Of a stretch of DNA of 5,329 nucleotides, positions 1-5,329 are shown in pieces; the stretch's first letter is position 1; the number at the start of each line of letters is the position of its first letter. Position numbers and translations under genes: made by a program. Below the pieces are notes generated by a model, which saw only the letters and a list, made by a program, of their open reading frames with translations, had not been told where the DNA came from and searched no databases. The stretch is taken from contig DAOOON010000025.1 of assembly GCA_035387745.1 (NCBI GenBank), positions 1 through 5,329 of the forward strand, given 5' to 3'. This DNA comes from an archaeon (GTDB taxonomy: Archaea > Iainarchaeota > Iainarchaeia > Iainarchaeales > CSSED10-239).

Positions 1-1394
1 TCTTTGTGCTTTGGGTCTTTAGCATACTTGTGAATATCTATCTTTTTCTTGTATGCCTCACAAGCTTGGACTAGAGCCCTTGCTCCTGCTTCTGTGCCAT
101 CAGGATGAGCGTGAACTCCTGCGCCCATGGTTGTTATAAAATCAACTCCTCCCATAATTTCTATAAATGGTTTTAATAGAGTTGGATTTAAACCACCAGA
201 AATTATTGGAGCACATTTCTTTAGACCTCTCCAGGAGTCGTCTTCTAATATTCTTTTCTTGTTTTTGTCTTTCTTATTTAATTTTATAATATCTATATCC
301 TTCTGTGGTATTGTTGACCAAGACTGCTCAAAGAAATGTCCTTTTGCTGTAAAATTTAAAATATTATGTGCAGCAACAACATCTTCTTCTGGCGTTCCTG
401 CCATCTTTCCAACACCTGCAGTTCCTGTATGTATTCCGCTTGCCCCTGCAAGTCTTGCAAACTTAGAAAGCACTAATACTGAAAAACCAAAGACATTTTC
501 TGGTCTAGTATATGCACCATGTGATGCCCTATGGAAGTGAATAAACACATCAGGGTATTTTCTTCTTAGAGTCTGAACTGCCATCCAACCTGCAGTTATT
601 CCATCTATTAAGAATGCATAAGAACCTTTTTCAAAGCCTGCGCTTCTTATTAGCTCACATCTTTTTATCATGGTGTCAAAGTCAGAAGCAGAGACATTAA
701 AAGAATGGACCTTCTTATGGCCTGTTTTTTTAACTGCTTTATCCATTGCTTCTTTAACGTGTTTTACCATCTTGTCGTAAGGGCAGAAATCCTGGTCAGC
801 CTGTGGCTCATCATTCTTAACAAAGTCTCCTCCGCCTACCCAGAAGTCATAACACACTTCTGCATATTCTGCTGAGGTTAAGCCAATCTTTGGTTTAATA
901 ATTGTTCCAAGAATTGGTCTGTCATAAACTCCCAGATATTTTCTCATGTCATCAATTGTGTAGCTTGGGCCATCATATTGTTCAAGCATACTTGGTGGAA
1001 ACCACATGTCTAATAGCTTTAAAGCAGAAACTTCTTTCATGCCTAGAACATTACCCACAACATAAGTTAGAATATTTTGAACGTTTCCTCTTCTATCAAA
1101 TAGTCTCCAAGGATATGCAATCCATACTAGTTCGTTTTTAATATCCATCTTATAGACTAAAGCATTCATCTGTCTAGAAAATGGAGTTTCTGTTGTTACT
1201 GGAAAATTAGTTCCAGAAGAAGATTCTGCAGCAATCTCTGCTGCTGCTTGAAGAGTGTTTAGATTTTTTCCTGGTTTAAAATGGAAAACAGTTAGCATAT
1301 ACTCTCCATTATGTAATTGGCTATCTGTCATTTTAAGATTGACATAAGTCTTTTGTTTTTCATTTAAAGTTTTATATAAATCTCTTGAATTCAT
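1..1394 (-). CDS. rbcL: Ribulose-1,5-bisphosphate carboxylase/oxygenase large subunit, form II/III-like; partial, with the C-terminus running off the left window edge (464 codons visible)
   Basis: Absent from the ORF track because there is no stop codon in the window. My reverse-complement translation from the ATG at 1394 stays open to position 3: [64 protein letters not shown]...[13 protein letters not shown]... Catalytic motifs are all present. These are [10 protein letters not shown] (aa163-172), [11 protein letters not shown] (aa188-198; K193 at 816..818 is the carbamylated Lys position, D195/E196 the Mg ligands), HFHRASHGA (aa286-294), [17 protein letters not shown] (loop-6 Lys K330), [10 protein letters not shown] and [12 protein letters not shown]. 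It is collinear with Rhodospirillum rubrum form II CbbM as I recall it (RYVNL, [61 protein letters not shown]). An AGGGAGGGAG Shine-Dalgarno sequence at 1401..1410 lies 6-9 nt upstream of the ATG at 1394. An in-frame ATG at 1400 abuts the SD and is less likely to be the start. Confidence 0.93.
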   Translation of the reverse strand, partial: [464 protein letters not shown]

Positions 1395-1470
1395 AAACAT
1401 CTCCCTCCCTAAATATAATAATAAAATAGATTATAAACTAGTTTAAAAAGATTGTGGTTTTAAAATATTT
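1395..1470. promoter_or_regulatory. Divergent intergenic/promoter region between RuBisCO (-) and the tandem-Nudix gene (+)
   Basis: 76-bp spacer that is almost pure A/T apart from the SD. Plus strand: TATAAT at 1414..1419, and TTTAAAAA at 1442..1449 centred about 25 nt upstream of the Nudix ATG. That spacing fits an archaeal TATA box driving a leaderless mRNA, and there is no SD before 1471. Minus strand: TTTATAAT (reverse complement of 1430..1437), which contains a perfect bacterial -10 TATAAT at 1435..1430 with a poor -35 (ACCACA). Transcription must start here for both genes, but the exact elements are unresolved. Confidence 0.4.
1401..1410 (-). promoter_or_regulatory. Shine-Dalgarno site of the RuBisCO gene
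   Basis: The minus strand reads AGGGAGGGAG ATG TTT ATG. The GGAGG core at 1404..1408 is 9 nt, and GGGAG at 1401..1405 is 6 nt, from the ATG at 1394. Confidence 0.7.
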
Positions 1471-2367
1471 ATGAGAACGAAGATTCTTTCTTTTATATAT
1501 TCAAGAAAAAATAATAACTGGCTTCTTCTAAAGAATAATGGTGCAGACCCAATACATGGCGGAGAGAAATGGTTTACTGTTACTGGGTCTGTTGAATCTG
1601 AAGACAAGTCTTTGGAAGACGCCGTAGCCAGAGAATTACTTGAAGAAATAAATCAAGCACCAATAAAGATAATTAATCTAAACACTAAAAGTGAATACTA
1701 CAGCGAATATGATAAAGAAGACTGTTTAGAATATAATTTCATTTCTGTGGTTAACTCTGATAAAGTAACACTAGACACTATAGAAAACACAGATTATCTT
1801 TGGGTAGATCTTGAGGAGTACATTGAAAAGATTTGGTGGTTAGAGGATAAAAACAAATTAAAAGAACAATTAGAAAATGAAATAAAAAACCTAAATATTA
1901 CTGCTGAAAACATAGACAATACTTATCTCCCTTATGGTTCTTATGTTGAAGTATATATTCTAAATGAAAATAAAGAATTCATTGTTGTCTTTTCTGCTTT
2001 AAAAGGAAATTTCTGTAAAGTACTTGGTGGAGGAGTTGAAAAAGGAGAAAGCTTTGAAGAAGCCGCAATAAGAGAAGCAAAGGAAGAATTAAATGCGGAT
2101 ATTAAAATTATTGGTGTATCGAAACATCCTTCTGATTTTGAAATATCAAAAAAAAGTTTATTCAATAATTATTTTAAATCTCGTGGCGGAAGAGGAAAAA
2201 TAATTATTGCTAAACTAGATCCTCCTTATCAGCGTCTTAAGATACAAGCAGACGAGATATCTGGATATAAATGGATAAATAAAGATCAAATATATAATAA
2301 CCTTGAAATACTTGATCAATGGATATCTGCAGAAAAGATTTTTAAGGAATTTGCGGATTATTTTTGA
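1471..2367 (+). CDS. Tandem (two-domain) Nudix hydrolase, substrate unknown
   Basis: 298-aa ORF. The C-terminal domain has a near-canonical Nudix box GX5EX7REUXEEXGU: G187-GVEKG-E193-SFEEAAI-R201E202-A-K-E205E206-L-N-A (2029..2097), with only the last Gly replaced by Asn. The N-terminal domain has a NudB-like segment, WFTVTGSVESEDKSLEDAVARELLEEINQ (box about 1585..1656; compare E. coli NudB WQSVTGSVEEGETAPQAAMREVKEE). It keeps RELLEE but has a one-residue insertion and Asp/Lys at the first conserved Glu position. Both halves end with the typical aromatic-W-hydrophobic strand (YLWVDLEEY and YKWINKDQI). Confidence 0.82.
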   Translation: MRTKILSFIYSRKNNNWLLLKNNGADPIHGGEKWFTVTGSVESEDKSLEDAVARELLEEINQAPIKIINLNTKSEYYSEYDKEDCLEYNFISVVNSDKVTLDTIENTDYLWVDLEEYIEKIWWLEDKNKLKEQLENEIKNLNITAENIDNTYLPYGSYVEVYILNENKEFIVVFSALKGNFCKVLGGGVEKGESFEEAAIREAKEELNADIKIIGVSKHPSDFEISKKSLFNNYFKSRGGRGKIIIAKLDPPYQRLKIQADEISGYKWINKDQIYNNLEILDQWISAEKIFKEFADYF

Positions 2368-2374
2368 TTTTAAA

Positions 2375-3097
2375 TCATTTAATTAAAATTGGATTAAATA
2401 GTCTTATCTTTTTTGTCTTTGGATCATAAAATGCATTATCTACATCTATGTCTGTGATTCTGGTTTCTGGGCTTAAGCCGTATCTTTCTGAATTTTGCTT
2501 TAAATAGTCGTTTACTTTGTCTTCTAATATTCTTAGTCTTCTACTAATATCTGTATATTCTTTAATCTTTATCTGGCCTTTCTGTAAAAGGGTCTTTGGA
2601 TGGTGCCCATATTGGTAATTATAGCATATAACACTGGTGTTCTTCTCTTTATCCTGAAATGCAAACTTAAGAGTTACTGTTGCTATATTTGCTGAAGCGT
2701 GTTGTTTTAAATAATCAGAAACTACGTTTAATGCCTTGGCTTCAGTTATTGAATCTTCCCAAGTATAAGAAGGAATAATGCTTTCTTTTTCTAATCCTGG
2801 CACTAATTTTTCTTCTTTTATGAAATATTTCTTTATTTTTCCGTTTTTATCTTTAATATCTAGAACATAATTTCTTTGAATATGCTCTCCATCAGACTTA
2901 AAGCTCATTTGCTTAGAGATTGCAAATCTACCTTGTGGATCTTTAATATTTGTTAAAGTTTGTTTTTTAGAAAGCTCAGACAGCGCTGTAATTATGTCTG
3001 CTTGACTTAAAATTTTATTTCCGCCTCTTGAACGAACCACAGATTTAGTTCCTTTTTTTATAATTCTAAAAGGTTTCATTCTTGCTGCAGCTGCCAT
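2375..3097 (-). CDS. Hypothetical protein, 240 aa, basic, mixed alpha/beta; no family recognised
   Basis: Long uninterrupted ORF in an AT-rich (stop-rich) background. Its start is 6 nt after the stop of the upstream 134-aa ORF (TGA TAA ATA ATG), and its codon and amino-acid usage (K/I/N/E rich) resemble the neighbours. There is no SD. The alternative start is Met7 (ATG at 3079), so the MAAAAR leader is uncertain. I can assert no catalytic motif. Confidence 0.6.
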   Translation of the reverse strand: MAAAARMKPFRIIKKGTKSVVRSRGGNKILSQADIITALSELSKKQTLTNIKDPQGRFAISKQMSFKSDGEHIQRNYVLDIKDKNGKIKKYFIKEEKLVPGLEKESIIPSYTWEDSITEAKALNVVSDYLKQHASANIATVTLKFAFQDKEKNTSVICYNYQYGHHPKTLLQKGQIKIKEYTDISRRLRILEDKVNDYLKQNSERYGLSPETRITDIDVDNAFYDPKTKKIRLFNPILIK

Positions 3098-3103
3098 TAT
3101 TTA

Positions 3104-3508
3104 TCACTTTTGTGTTTTAATGTGCACTTCTTTAATTAATTTAAATAATTCTTTATAATCTTTTTCCATAATTCTTAAACCAGCTTTTTCTGCAGAATCT
3201 AAATACTTATAAACTATTGGATCTCTATAAGAATTCACTATATCTGCAATTTCTATAGCCTGAAATAATTTTTCATTTAATCTATTAGAACTATTTTTGG
3301 ATTTAGAATTTAATTGATAATTTATTTCTGTAATTAATTCTTTTATATTGCTATGAAGTCTATAAATAGTAGTTACTGGTTTTCTAGCTTTTGAATTTGC
3401 TCTTTCTATATTTTCTAATTTTAATGCTATTTCTTTTGGCAATCTTTCCTGTTTAATTTTTTGTGGAGATTTAATATTCGTTCTCCTTGCAGTTCTTAAT
3501 TTTAGCAT
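3104..3508 (-). CDS. Hypothetical protein, 134 aa, basic N-terminus, predicted all-helical; no family recognised
   Basis: ORF preceded by a good SD (AAGGAG at 3515..3520, 6 nt before the ATG at 3508). It ends in tandem stops TGA TAA. The sequence MLKLRTARRTNIKSPQKIKQERLPKE... has a Lys/Arg-rich N-terminal tail followed by helix-like heptad-rich sequence. Confidence 0.62.
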   Translation of the reverse strand: MLKLRTARRTNIKSPQKIKQERLPKEIALKLENIERANSKARKPVTTIYRLHSNIKELITEINYQLNSKSKNSSNRLNEKLFQAIEIADIVNSYRDPIVYKYLDSAEKAGLRIMEKDYKELFKLIKEVHIKTQK

Positions 3509-3514
3509 AGTTTA

Positions 3515-3520
3515 CTCCTT
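3515..3520 (-). promoter_or_regulatory. Shine-Dalgarno site of the 134-aa ORF
   Basis: The minus strand reads TTAAGGAGTAAACT ATG. The 64-bp gap (3509..3572) upstream also holds TATA-like elements (TTATAAAT at 3549..3556 and TATATA near 3535..3540 on the minus strand), so the cassette may have its own promoter. Confidence 0.55.
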
Positions 3521-3572
3521 AAAAGTAAAATATGTATATAACTATATGATTTATAAGCCATTATGTTTTTTG

Positions 3573-4130
3573 TTATCCTTTCAATTGACTAACTAAATAT
3601 TCTTTAAACTTAAGAATTGCAAGACGCCTCATGCTTATTTTGTTTTTTTCTTCTATAGGCATCTCTGCATAAGTCTTATCGTAACCATCTGGCATAAATA
3701 TCAAATCCCAAGCAAACCTATCGTCTCCTCTTGGAGAAACAATCTTTCCTGTTACCTTTCCTTCAAAGAAATAAGTGTCTTTTCCATCATAAAAACCAAT
3801 AGAAACTATTGCTGTTGCCTTGTTATTTGGTTTTAACATCTCACTTATCTTTTGTGGGCCTGCTGTTGTGTATAGCCACTTGATTAAAGGGCCAGGAAAA
3901 CCATTAAAATAATCAAAGCAAAGAGAAGTGTCTTCAACAAATATGTTTTTTAAGGACTTGTCAAGTTTAGCAACTTCTATCTTTTCAAAAATTACTTTTT
4001 TAGAATCAAGTTCTTGTATTTCTGGAAGATCAAGTTTTAAGTTTTCAATCTCAATTTCTGGAATATCAGAGAAAAGACTTTTGATTTCCTCAAGTTTGTT
4101 TTTATTTCCTGTAATAAAATATATTTTCAT
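3573..4130 (-). CDS. Non-canonical purine NTP pyrophosphatase (ITP/dITP/XTP pyrophosphatase), HAM1/ITPA family
   Basis: 185 aa. It has the family motifs FITGNKNKLEE (TGNxxKxxE), VEDTSLCFDYFNGFPGPLIKW, GKIVSPRGDDRFAWDLIF and TYAEMPIEEKNKISMRRLA. It is strongly collinear with human ITPA as I recall it ([65 protein letters not shown]) and has the same length class as M. jannaschii Mj0226. An SD-like AGGGGG (4138..4143) overlaps the stop of the upstream permease, 7 nt from the ATG. Confidence 0.9.
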   Translation of the reverse strand: MKIYFITGNKNKLEEIKSLFSDIPEIEIENLKLDLPEIQELDSKKVIFEKIEVAKLDKSLKNIFVEDTSLCFDYFNGFPGPLIKWLYTTAGPQKISEMLKPNNKATAIVSIGFYDGKDTYFFEGKVTGKIVSPRGDDRFAWDLIFMPDGYDKTYAEMPIEEKNKISMRRLAILKFKEYLVSQLKG

Positions 4131-4141
4131 TTTTTTGCCCC

Positions 4142-4888
4142 CTATACTTGCATCTTTGAGAAAAGCTTAGAACCTATGACAAGCATTATTATTGCTAAAA
4201 CTCCAAGAAGTATTAGATTAAAGAACATATTACCAGTTGCTGTTCCTGCTAGTGCCGACCTAAGCCCAGAAACCCCGTAACTTAAAGGATTAATAGTTGA
4301 TAAAACCTTGATTGCTTTAGGAACGCCTTCTAAAGGAAAGAGCGCGCCAGATAAAAAGAAGATTGGCATGATTAAGAAATTCATGATTAGCTGAAAGCCC
4401 TGCATATCATTAAGAAGACTAGCAATTGCTGTTCCAAGAGCTGCAAAGAAAAGGGCAATTAATATCATAAACAAAATTGCGATTGGCAATAGTGTCCAAG
4501 AAATAATGCGAAATCCAAAAAGCATTGATAAAAATAGAAATAAAAGACCTTGAGCAAAAGCAACTGTCGCTCCGCCAAGTGTTCTTCCAATCATTATCTC
4601 TAAACGTGGAACTGGTGCTACAAGTGTTTCTTTTAAGAAACCAAATTGCCTATCCCAGATTATCTCTATTCCTGACATCACTGACGCAAACAATATTGAC
4701 ATTGAAATCATTCCTGGAACAAGAAACTGTAAATAATTTCCTTGCCCTGCTTGAGCAAATACTGGACCAAATCCAAAACCAAATGCTAAAAGAAACAATA
4801 AAGGCATAGCAAGAGAACCAATCATTCTTGATTTTGATCTATATTGCCTTTTAATCTGTCTTAACCATAATATTCCAATTGTGTTCAT
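4142..4888 (-). CDS. ABC-2 family transporter permease (exporter-type, about 6 TM segments)
   Basis: 248 aa and very hydrophobic, with about six spaced hydrophobic stretches. It has an N-terminal cytoplasmic basic segment (LRQIKRQYRSKSRM), the typical ABC-2 layout, and lies directly downstream (15 nt) of an ABC ATPase. SD AAGGAAG (4896..4902) is 7 nt before the ATG. Confidence 0.8.
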   Translation of the reverse strand: MNTIGILWLRQIKRQYRSKSRMIGSLAMPLLFLLAFGFGFGPVFAQAGQGNYLQFLVPGMISMSILFASVMSGIEIIWDRQFGFLKETLVAPVPRLEIMIGRTLGGATVAFAQGLLFLFLSMLFGFRIISWTLLPIAILFMILIALFFAALGTAIASLLNDMQGFQLIMNFLIMPIFFLSGALFPLEGVPKAIKVLSTINPLSYGVSGLRSALAGTATGNMFFNLILLGVLAIIMLVIGSKLFSKMQV

Positions 4889-4903
4889 GTCTTTTCTTCC
4901 TTT

Positions 4904-5329
4904 TTATTTGTGATGCATCTTCCTATTCTGCCTCATTCTGTCTATTGTGCTAACTTCTTCGTCTCTTATACTATATCCTGTGATTTTAATAAATGCTTCT
5001 TCTAAAGTATTTGTTTTTGTTTTCTTAATCAATTCTTTACTTGTTCCAATATCTATTATCTTTCCGTAATCTATTATTGCAATACTGTCTGCATACCTTT
5101 CTGCTTCATCCATATAATGTGTTGTAAAGAATATTGTTGTGCCTTCTCTTTTGTTTACTTTCTTAATATAATCCCAAATGTGGTTTCTAGTCTGGGGGTC
5201 AAGACCAACTGTTGGCTCATCAAGGAACAAAACTTTTGGATAATGTAATAAACCTCTTGCAATTTCTAGTCTTCTTTTCATCCCACCAGAGAAGTTCTTA
5301 ACAAGTTCGTTTTTTCTATCCCAAAGCTC
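4904..5329 (-). CDS. ABC transporter ATP-binding protein (ABC-2/DrrA-like), C-terminal 141 aa; the N-terminus lies beyond the right window edge
   Basis: The frame is open to the window edge: ELWDRKNELVKNFSGGMKRRLEIARGLLHYPKVLFLDEPTVGLDPQTR...FFTTHYMDEAERYAD. It contains the signature motif (FSGGMKRR), Walker B (VLFLDEPT), D-loop (GLD) and H-loop (TTHYMDE). The Met at 5281 listed in the ORF track is internal, not the start. Confidence 0.9.
   Translation of the reverse strand, partial: ELWDRKNELVKNFSGGMKRRLEIARGLLHYPKVLFLDEPTVGLDPQTRNHIWDYIKKVNKREGTTIFFTTHYMDEAERYADSIAIIDYGKIIDIGTSKELIKKTKTNTLEEAFIKITGYSIRDEEVSTIDRMRQNRKMHHK

Follow-up and report, generated by a model that had tools for sequence, protein, structure and literature searches.

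A tandem-Nudix gene divergently paired with form II/III RuBisCO in a DPANN-type archaeal clade

A contig of an archaeon of the Iainarchaeota (assembly GCA_035387745.1, contig DAOOON010000025.1, positions 1 to 5,329; henceforth, at its full length of 5,329 nucleotides, the window) encodes a form II/III RuBisCO large subunit (rbcL) and, head-to-head with it across a 76-bp spacer, a protein with two Nudix domains. The divergent gene pair is real and inherited. On the reading that we favor, with about even confidence, its Nudix protein is most likely a general pyrophosphohydrolase of nucleotide derivatives with a facultative, perhaps co-regulatory, link to rbcL. The prevailing view of RuBisCO in DPANN archaea and in bacteria of the candidate phyla radiation (CPR) is that it allows highly reduced cells to use scavenged nucleotides as fuel, the entry of substrates into this route being of particular interest in genomes devoid of AMP phosphorylase. 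An earlier sequence-only reading of the window had cast the Nudix protein as a candidate feeder enzyme for this route. The adjacency on which that proposal was built is conserved, but natural variants and subfamily comparisons argue against a dedicated feeder. Below, L numbers denote retrieved loci or contigs and P numbers protein homologs, both being labels internal to the analysis.

A conserved divergent pair with a constrained spacer

The gene pair and its spacer comprise the following features:

1–1394, minus strand: form II/III RuBisCO large-subunit gene (rbcL), first 464 codons (Pfam and NCBIfam matches, translation)
1395–1470, no strand: putative divergent intergenic control region of 76 bp, common to rbcL and the Nudix gene (sequence; alignment of 9 related loci)
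1401–1410, minus strand: Shine-Dalgarno-like AGGGAGGGAG, 7–16 nt upstream of the rbcL ATG (read from the sequence; putative function)
1431–1449, no strand: imperfect palindrome TTATAAACTAGTTTAAAAA (inverted repeats I4 and I15)
1471–2367, plus strand: tandem-Nudix protein gene, 298 aa plus stop (open reading frame; Pfam NUDIX in two stretches)

The left end of the window falls within rbcL, which is complete, at 488 codons, on the longer contig L155. Its product matches the Pfam models RuBisCO_large (1.1e-86) and RuBisCO_large_N (1.9e-28) and scores 621 bits against the NCBIfam model PRK13475 (cut-off 489), with the form III model remaining below its own cut-off. As passing the PRK13475 cut-off denotes a form II-type enzyme, we assign it in this context to form II/III, and it displays the long lysine-rich insertion described for the form II/III enzymes of DPANN archaea and CPR bacteria. 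The rbcL ATG is the reverse complement of positions 1392–1394 and is preceded by the Shine-Dalgarno-like GGGAGGGAG (reverse complement of 1401–1410). The open reading frames (ORFs), the Pfam matches and the region at 1395–1470 bear out the head-to-head pairing of RuBisCO with a double-Nudix gene around a common 76-bp region, as described in the sequence-only reading. The window corresponds to contig ERZ761564 NODE_18893, and its Nudix protein is identical to HOZ36020.1, which comes from a metagenome-assembled genome (MAG) named 'archaeon'.

Genomic contexts retrieved via the Nudix protein and its homologs show the head-to-head arrangement of rbcL and the Nudix gene in 11 lineages, defined at the protein level, of a single archaeal clade of the DPANN type, with 53–80 bp between the two genes in most paired loci. 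Failure of the adjacency to recur in related genomes had been named beforehand as speaking against the proposal; the adjacency is kept in these lineages, which are:

Window lineage: L155–L158, L067
P0002: L166
P0004: L006
P0007: L001, L002, L010
P0009: L165
P0012: L163, L164
P0016: L007–L009
P0023: L147
P0025: L152, L153
P0029: L149–L151
L012/L068

Across these lineages the C-terminal Nudix domain has diverged to about 55% identity. The spacer is overall 57–89% identical across the 9 aligned related loci, and six of the seven lineages with RuBisCO that were aligned have a core (1418–1460) with 84–98% identity to that of the window, although the dS of the flanking gene between lineages is about 0.9–1.4, i.e., synonymous sites are near saturation. 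The GGAGG-type run upstream of rbcL is likewise maintained in the aligned loci. The palindrome at 1431–1449 suggests two back-to-back TATA-like boxes that may act as promoter elements, namely TTTATAA on the minus strand, oriented toward rbcL, and TTTAAAAA at 1442–1449, 22–29 nt ahead of the Nudix ATG. The latter element is invariant in all 9 aligned loci, including the one that lacks rbcL, and its distance from the ATG suggests a leaderless or near-leaderless Nudix mRNA. The same start codons and spacer are found again in related contigs, which excludes both an artefact of ORF calling and a chance juxtaposition. A sigma-70 promoter scan of positions 1200–2600 returned 9 promoter-like sites against an expected 6.9 ± 2.5, a result that is uninformative because the model is the wrong one for an archaeon; a scan of the same interval for intrinsic terminators found none. 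Bacteria possess divergent regulator/RuBisCO gene pairs of the cbbR-cbbL type, and the window pair likewise places a partner head-to-head with a RuBisCO gene around a short common control region. However, this partner is a Nudix protein devoid of a DNA-binding domain detectable with Pfam or NCBIfam, and the promoter elements look archaeal (TATA-like boxes) rather than of the sigma-70 type.

Domain architecture and affinities of the Nudix protein

Pfam recognizes two separate NUDIX stretches in the protein (6.1e-25; 88 bits against a cut-off of 21), which is organized as follows:

1471–1890, plus strand: N-terminal Nudix domain (aa 1–140), NudB/Ap4A-hydrolase-like (NudB model, PDB sequence matches, AlphaFold model)
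1585–1656, plus strand: Nudix box 1 (aa 39–62), GSVESEDKSLEDAVARELLEEINQ (sequence)
1894–1938, plus strand: inter-domain linker NITAENIDNTYLPYG (alignments A1 and A3), a remnant of which persists in single-domain relatives missing the N domain
1918–2364, plus strand: C-terminal Nudix domain (aa about 150–298), RppH/ApnA-hydrolase-like fold (Pfam stretch 159–279; model; Foldseek)
2029–2097, plus strand: canonical Nudix box 2 (aa 187–209), GGVEKGESFEEAAIREAKEELNA (sequence)
2254–2283, plus strand: family-specific motif EISGYKWINK (invariant columns)
2329–2364, plus strand: conserved C-terminal helix AEKIFKEFADYF (invariant columns)

Box 1 retains RELLEE (R54, E55, E58, E59) with one extra residue between the G and the RE, and box 2 shows the canonical GX5EX7REUXEE spacing with R201, E202, E205 and E206 in place and the final G replaced by N. 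In the full-length AlphaFold model the N domain is well predicted (predicted local distance difference test [pLDDT] about 90) and the C domain poorly so (pLDDT 30–60), but a deeper alignment for the C domain alone gave a model with a pLDDT of 91. Hundreds of Nudix structures match both halves in Foldseek searches at E<1e-3, and by fold and box alike both halves belong to the Nudix superfamily (PF00293). The full-length model recovers an undifferentiated list of Nudix proteins with generic matches to the N domain. With the separate C-domain model, E. coli RppH is the best match (template modeling score [TM] 0.74–0.77, root-mean-square deviation about 2.5 Å, identity 18–19%), followed by DR1025, NudB, the Ap6A hydrolase Ndx1 and Ap4A hydrolases.

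The two halves have little in common, sharing a single 36-residue match around the box, and each has its own stand-alone relatives: P0072–P0076 (about 140–155 aa, 40–46% identical) and P0220 (62% identical) for residues 1–150, and P0071 (about 140–155 aa, 46% identical) for residues 150–298. On these sequence affinities, the tandem protein is a fusion of two stand-alone Nudix families of archaea that differ from each other. Close relatives over the full length (65–99% identical) numbered only about 17 in a word-indexed search of 5.8 billion proteins, and an exhaustive HMMER search of 1.84 billion representatives yielded 297 matches at E<=1e-3, only 3 of them at E<=1e-30. Close homologs also occur under bacterial MAG names (P0015, Izemoplasmatales bacterium; L013, Patescibacteria group bacterium); these labels may most simply reflect binning errors on short contigs, with gene transfer as the alternative.

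Neither domain can be placed in a characterized subfamily. The top NCBIfam model for the N half, NudB (NF006961), scores 47.6 bits over residues 5–131, below its cut-off of 103, and its PDB sequence matches are marginal (E about 1e-3), e.g., 5cfi (putative Ap4A hydrolase) and 3son (hypothetical Nudix protein); PDB sequence searches with each domain gave assorted Nudix proteins at E about 1e-3, from which specificity is not assignable. The segment WFTVTGSVE resembles the loop ahead of the box in E. coli NudB and Ap4A hydrolases, but the box that follows differs from that of NudB in its extra residue, its final N in place of G, and its degeneration (RK, KE, EK) in several orthologs. The C domain shows weak NCBIfam matches to RppH, NudI and MutT, all far under the cut-offs; RppH is the commonest family among them, its models (PRK00714) scoring 34.6 bits against 118 and 32.2 bits against 116. 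Given the high structural similarity on one hand and the missed cut-offs on the other, we take the relationship to RppH as resemblance, not membership. The best structural matches of the C domain as a group (TM up to 0.77) are E. coli RppH (NudH) and the ApnA hydrolases (the Ap4A hydrolases of C. elegans, human and lupin, T. thermophilus Ndx1 and D. radiodurans DR1025), with which it shares a canonical box with all three catalytic glutamates; however, identity to this group is 13–20%, its curated cut-offs are likewise far from reached, and the EISGYKWI.K motif and C-terminal helix of the window family are missing from the descriptions of those enzymes.

Other subfamilies fare no better. The ADP-ribose pyrophosphatase (YffH/AdpP; NudE) model TIGR00052 gives 18.4 bits against 79.55, and such enzymes are not among the best Foldseek matches of the C domain. 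By eye there is no proline at the canonical offset of their indicator residue, 16 positions after the box, the proline at residue 220 lying 11 residues past the end of box 2 and not being kept in P0002, but the numbering convention differs between sources and we give this observation no weight. No structure of a diphosphoinositol polyphosphate phosphohydrolase (DIPP) is among the 50 best fold matches of either domain. As in the NAD(H) diphosphatases of the NudC/NUDT12 type, one chain carries two Nudix folds, the N-terminal one being dispensable for catalysis in some lineages, and NudC is among the fold matches of the full-length model. However, both window domains stem from catalytic stand-alone families, the NudC model NF001299 scores 27.7 bits against 158, and neither the zinc motif (cysteines between the two domains) nor the SQPWPFPxS signature of NudC occurs in the 298-aa sequence. 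With no curated subfamily cut-off reached, there is no evidence for specificity toward ADP-ribose, phosphoribosyl pyrophosphate (PRPP) or diadenosine polyphosphates (ApnA).

Losses of genes, domains and catalytic residues

The lineage of P0014 (L004, L005) has a deletion that removed rbcL codons 1–416 together with two genes that commonly accompany rbcL, c5 and His_Phos_1, bringing pyrB/pyrI, which normally lie beyond rbcL, to abut the Nudix gene. The remnant of rbcL is a frameshifted stretch of about 125 bp (codons 417–462), and TTTAAAAA is retained along with the full 298-aa Nudix ORF and its intact C-domain box. Thus, the RuBisCO-side genes were lost together and the Nudix gene was retained. 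The converse is seen in three RuBisCO-bearing lineages (L149/L012, L152, L147), whose sole Nudix box reads RIAKEE, RLAKEE or RQAKEK. The RuBisCO-adjacent single-domain proteins P0024, P0025, P0026, P0028, P0029 and that of L012 have R-[M/L/I]-AKEE instead of REAKEE together with a 15-residue loop deletion, and P0023 (L147) has RQAKEK. The E53A mutant, the standard inactive form of E. coli RppH, is equivalent to this loss of the box glutamate, and the fold matches of the C domain include the mutant structure 2kdw. Between L012/L149 and L152, the glutamate-less genes show a dN/dS of 0.14–0.15 at a dS of about 0.9, comparable to the 0.17 between two lineages with canonical boxes, indicating that they are under purifying selection and not decaying.

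The N domain is similarly prone to loss. P0016, P0023 and P0025 begin with M-[E/R]-T-K-[I/T]-[L/F] (METKILS...) like the two-domain proteins and continue directly into a remnant of the linker, which points to removal of the N domain by in-frame deletion; degeneration of the N box (to RK, KE, EK or worse) is seen in P0007, P0014, P0004 and P0017. The nearest stand-alone relatives are unlinked to RuBisCO: those of the C type that are 45–48% identical (L013–L015, including a complete Forterrea genome) have no RuBisCO within 8 kb, and the N-type relative P0220 lies among MCM, eIF and RIO1 genes with no RuBisCO within 10 kb. Together, the loss variants and the unlinked relatives rule out an obligatory partnership in either direction. 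Adjacency beyond close relatives, with co-loss or co-retention of the two genes, would be expected of a coupled pair; this one is conserved in one clade only.

Neighbors of form II/III RuBisCO genes

For a RuBisCO-centered view we used 80 form II/III loci with RuBisCOs 75–99% identical to that of the window, obtained by a metagenome contig scan, and ran a generic Nudix hidden Markov model over all their ORFs. A Nudix gene lies within 1.5 kb of rbcL in 8 of the 80 loci and at 1.5–6 kb in 4 further ones; dereplication at 90% RuBisCO identity leaves 50 lineages, 8 with a proximal Nudix gene, and 133 kb of proximal plus 275 kb of distal flank. The proximal cases fall into two synteny blocks, the window clade (L067, L068) and a group B (L077, L090, L091, L094, L127, L146), and the four distal cases are three more unrelated Nudix families. 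The group-B block has the order c7–CysRS–rbcL–(0–2 genes)–Nudix–NFACT-R–CRM, and about half of the wider set of loci with this block keep rbcL, NFACT-R and CRM and lack the Nudix gene. The group-B Nudix is a NudB/RppH-like protein of about 150 aa; at 26–29% identity to either window domain, orthology with the N or the C domain is ruled out.

In a Pfam census with one representative per lineage (149 ORFs, 49 lineages; alignment A6), we took from either flank of rbcL the two closest ORFs that reach 100 aa. The counts were:

CysRS: 7
NUDIX: 7
HAD: 7 (3 of them P-type ATPases)
IF-2B/R15P isomerase: 4
HIT: 4
NFACT-R: 4

NUDIX thus occurs beside rbcL no less often than the genuine pathway partner, the IF-2B-type ribose-1,5-bisphosphate (R15P) isomerase (7 vs 4). 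However, the CysRS count can only be inherited synteny, and as it equals that of NUDIX, the latter is not separable from synteny, on which ground we rejected a formal enrichment. A count of this kind had been called for in the sequence-only reading. Four HAD_2-type hydrolases also occur among the two nearest neighbors on either side of form II/III rbcL. In autotrophs, RuBisCO is found together with HAD phosphatases, among them CbbY and phosphoglycolate phosphatase.

The R15P isomerase (IF-2B) lies directly beside rbcL in other sampled lineages, as published for the RuBisCO AMP pathway (PMC6389311). In our loci, an IF-2B-family gene of this type adjoins rbcL in L079 (4507–5319), L080, L084, L097, L116 (5165–5983) and an alternative-code cluster (e.g., L135). 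That cluster was recognized from 20 RuBisCO loci, all in one 90%-identity cluster, that have in-frame stops under translation table 11; the stops vanish under table 4, so these organisms probably recode UGA. The loci are L101, L102, L104, L106, L108–L110, L112, L114, L117, L118, L122, L123, L126, L133–L135, L137, L139 and L141. Neither deoA nor e2b2 was found within the 15-kb contig L155 or within 8–10 kb on either side in L007, L147 and L149.

Functional interpretation

We propose that the tandem-Nudix gene would be transcribed divergently from the form II/III rbcL out of the compact conserved spacer with its two TATA-like boxes. As both Nudix boxes of the window protein look competent, cleavage of nucleoside polyphosphates is its most likely activity: the enzyme would convert compounds of this type (nucleoside triphosphates [NTPs] and nucleoside diphosphate derivatives, ApnA, 5'-triphosphate or capped RNA ends) to nucleoside monophosphates (NMPs), and its role may be one of general nucleotide house-cleaning or salvage. 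The NMPs could then flow into the route that runs from NMP via R15P and ribulose-1,5-bisphosphate to 3-phosphoglycerate (3-PGA), but the link between the Nudix protein and this salvage would be loose and facultative, and not that of a dedicated or required feeder.

Several observations weigh against so loose a link. On its rbcL side the Nudix gene keeps its neighbor more stably than on its far side, where the neighbor varies (a 240-aa protein, an HD protein, an ABC-2 permease, a glycosyltransferase or small ORFs), and this stability, along with the strong constraint on the spacer, could reflect selection for co-expression. Further, six more lineages have the unrelated group-B Nudix downstream of rbcL, at a remove of 0–2 genes, and four dereplicated lineages (L071:463–858; L099:5463–5921; L127:7454–7882; L146:4224–4670) have a HIT nucleotide hydrolase gene as the immediate neighbor of rbcL, at 80–117 bp, with the HIT gene lying between rbcL and the group-B Nudix in L127 and L146. 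In all, about 245–410 kb of dereplicated flank contains members of five unrelated Nudix families at distances of up to 6 kb from RuBisCO. Several small archaeal genomes have been reported to contain 1–4 Nudix genes each, and against this figure the density near rbcL looks high, and some of it may be real enrichment; with few independent events and no whole-genome background, we treat it as a lead and not as a result.

The likeliest alternative, that of the sequence-only reading, is that the Nudix protein is a dedicated, co-regulated feeder, supplying R15P from PRPP, or AMP and other NMPs from ADP-ribose, ApnA, NAD(H) or NTPs. Beyond the pair in 11 lineages with its highly constrained spacer, the second Nudix family and the HIT hydrolases in another clade, and the tie of NUDIX as top family among the rbcL neighbors, it can draw on the resemblance of both domains to ApnA-hydrolase-type Nudix enzymes, a group reported to have PRPP pyrophosphatase activity. 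The conversion of PRPP into R15P by some Nudix enzymes, as invoked in the sequence-only reading, is indeed documented (PMC13573052). This activity of DIPP/ApnA-type enzymes (Fisher et al., 2002) is real but weak, with a Km of 380 µM for human DIPP1, and the physiological relevance of PRPP as a DIPP substrate is debated (PMC13573052). An entry to RuBisCO of the same kind has been proposed for heterotrophic marine Thaumarchaeota without AMP phosphorylase (bioRxiv 10.1101/2019.12.22.886556; PMC7300363), in which a Nudix hydrolase would feed R15P to R15P isomerase and RuBisCO, again on the basis of Fisher et al., 2002. Both proposals were made from genes alone, but that argument combines the absence of AMP phosphorylase with the occurrence of a Nudix gene at any genomic position, whereas the one for the window starts from gene adjacency. 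A Nudix entry does lie outside the described RuBisCO AMP pathway, of which the Nudix gene is not a part, as stated in the sequence-only reading, but the idea itself had already been put forward.

Against a dedicated feeder stand the retention of the Nudix gene after the deletion of rbcL in L004/L005, the retention of RuBisCO beside a glutamate-less Nudix in three lineages, the lack of linkage of the nearest stand-alone relatives and the repeated loss or degeneration of the N domain. The neighbor counts tell the same way, since synteny alone yields such counts, as CysRS attests, and the eight proximal cases reduce to two blocks, one of them with the Nudix gene missing from about half of its loci. 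Moreover, PRPP is a poor substrate even for DIPP enzymes, and the window protein has no DIPP or ADP-ribose pyrophosphatase signature. We therefore consider a dedicated feeder unlikely.

Rather less favored is a role as an RNA 5'-end pyrophosphohydrolase or decapping enzyme, akin to RppH, that removes pyrophosphate or Np4- and NAD-type caps, the position beside rbcL then being without metabolic meaning. The C-domain model is closest to RppH in its RNA-, NTP- and Ap4A-bound forms, which make up most of the 16 best-scoring matches, RppH recurs among the weak NCBIfam matches, and archaeal Nudix enzymes with RNA decapping roles are documented. However, RppH and the ApnA hydrolases form one fold class, so that the structure does not discriminate between them, the RppH scores (32–35 bits against cut-offs of 116–118) and identity (18–19%) are low, and the constrained shared spacer would be left unexplained; we regard this role as distinctly improbable.

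The last alternative, which we hold to be very doubtful, is a non-catalytic partner whose C domain would bind a ligand, either a nucleotide or a sugar phosphate, and would serve to sense or regulate the expression or activity of RuBisCO, with hydrolysis being dispensable. It would account for the several RuBisCO-adjacent lineages that replace the box glutamate (RE to RI, RL, RM or RQ) and delete the 15-aa loop and yet evolve under constraint, with the EISGYKWI.K motif and the C-terminal helix invariant, and regulators and their targets typically show such a divergent layout around a strongly constrained spacer; there are also Nudix domains that bind ligands without catalysis, as in NrtR, whose Nudix domain is among the fold matches. 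Against it, both boxes of the window protein are intact, Pfam and NCBIfam detect no DNA-binding or other partner domain, and the RuBisCO-less lineage keeps the Nudix gene. A general nucleotide-derivative pyrophosphohydrolase facultatively linked to rbcL thus remains the reading that we prefer.

Other genes of the window and of related loci

To the right of the Nudix gene the window contains:

2375–3097, minus strand: protein of 240 aa without a family match (Pfam, NCBIfam)
3104–3508, minus strand: protein of 134 aa without a family match (Pfam, NCBIfam)
3573–4130, minus strand: Ham1/RdgB non-canonical NTP pyrophosphatase (XTP/dITP diphosphatase; Pfam/NCBIfam)

The 240-aa and 134-aa proteins are clade-specific: L007, L152 and L155 have them conserved beside the Nudix gene, and L001 and L006 do so in part. 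Ham1/RdgB, another NMP-producing house-cleaning enzyme, is three genes away from the Nudix gene; its gene is present in the window lineage and L006 and missing from the same position in L007, L149 and L152. Beyond it, on the minus strand, are an ABC-2 permease and an ABC ATPase. No RNA family was detected when the entire window was compared with Rfam.

On the other side, rbcL is usually followed by c5, a conserved protein of 134–161 aa without a Pfam or NCBIfam match, and then by a His_Phos_1 phosphatase or a methyltransferase. Lying directly downstream of rbcL in most clade lineages that show that side, though not in L163, c5 is a candidate RuBisCO-associated protein. The His_Phos_1 gene, which follows rbcL-c5, or rbcL directly in L163, encodes a short member of the histidine phosphatase/phosphoglycerate mutase superfamily. 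Its best matches are short PspA/PhoE/CobC-type phosphatases, all below the cut-offs, so that it is not a clear mutase; possible substrates are 3-PGA and RuBisCO-related sugar phosphates. Their positions are:

c5: L155:1431–1838 (minus strand); L149:6041–6448; L001:249–653; L007:7960–8445; L068:7477–7884
His_Phos_1: L149:5424–6038 (minus strand); L147:5391–5996; L001:1–246; L163:2861–3469

Two further genes of the retrieved contigs deserve mention. In the P0023 lineage, L147:13885–14466 (minus strand), about 6 kb from rbcL, encodes a 193-aa protein of the PRK/uridine-kinase family (PF00485), which is too short for a phosphoribulokinase call. In L007 and L008 (1–2013 in each, plus strand), a UvrB gene is split by an intein, the homing-endonuclease domain of which is of the LAGLIDADG type (Pfam Intein_splicing, LAGLIDADG_3).

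Implications for RuBisCO-based salvage

The adjacency of rbcL and a Nudix gene appears undescribed in the papers searched: a Nudix neighbor of RuBisCO is unmentioned in the CPR/DPANN survey (PMC6389311) and in a 2026 preprint on complete Nanobdellota genomes. A broader conjecture, which we judge rather unlikely, is that Nudix and HIT hydrolases form a recurrent, facultative front end of RuBisCO salvage in DPANN archaea and CPR bacteria, co-transcribed or divergently co-regulated with rbcL and yielding AMP or R15P from nucleoside diphosphate derivatives, ApnA or PRPP-type compounds, with the glutamate-less forms possibly being ligand-sensing partners of RuBisCO. The variants that have lost either the gene or its catalytic residues indicate that the coupling of rbcL and Nudix is not obligatory, and they would be useful as biochemical controls, namely the RuBisCO-less P0014, the glutamate-less P0023, P0025 and P0029, and the N-domain-less P0016. 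A conserved Nudix partner of RuBisCO would give a concrete, testable entry enzyme for the salvage route.

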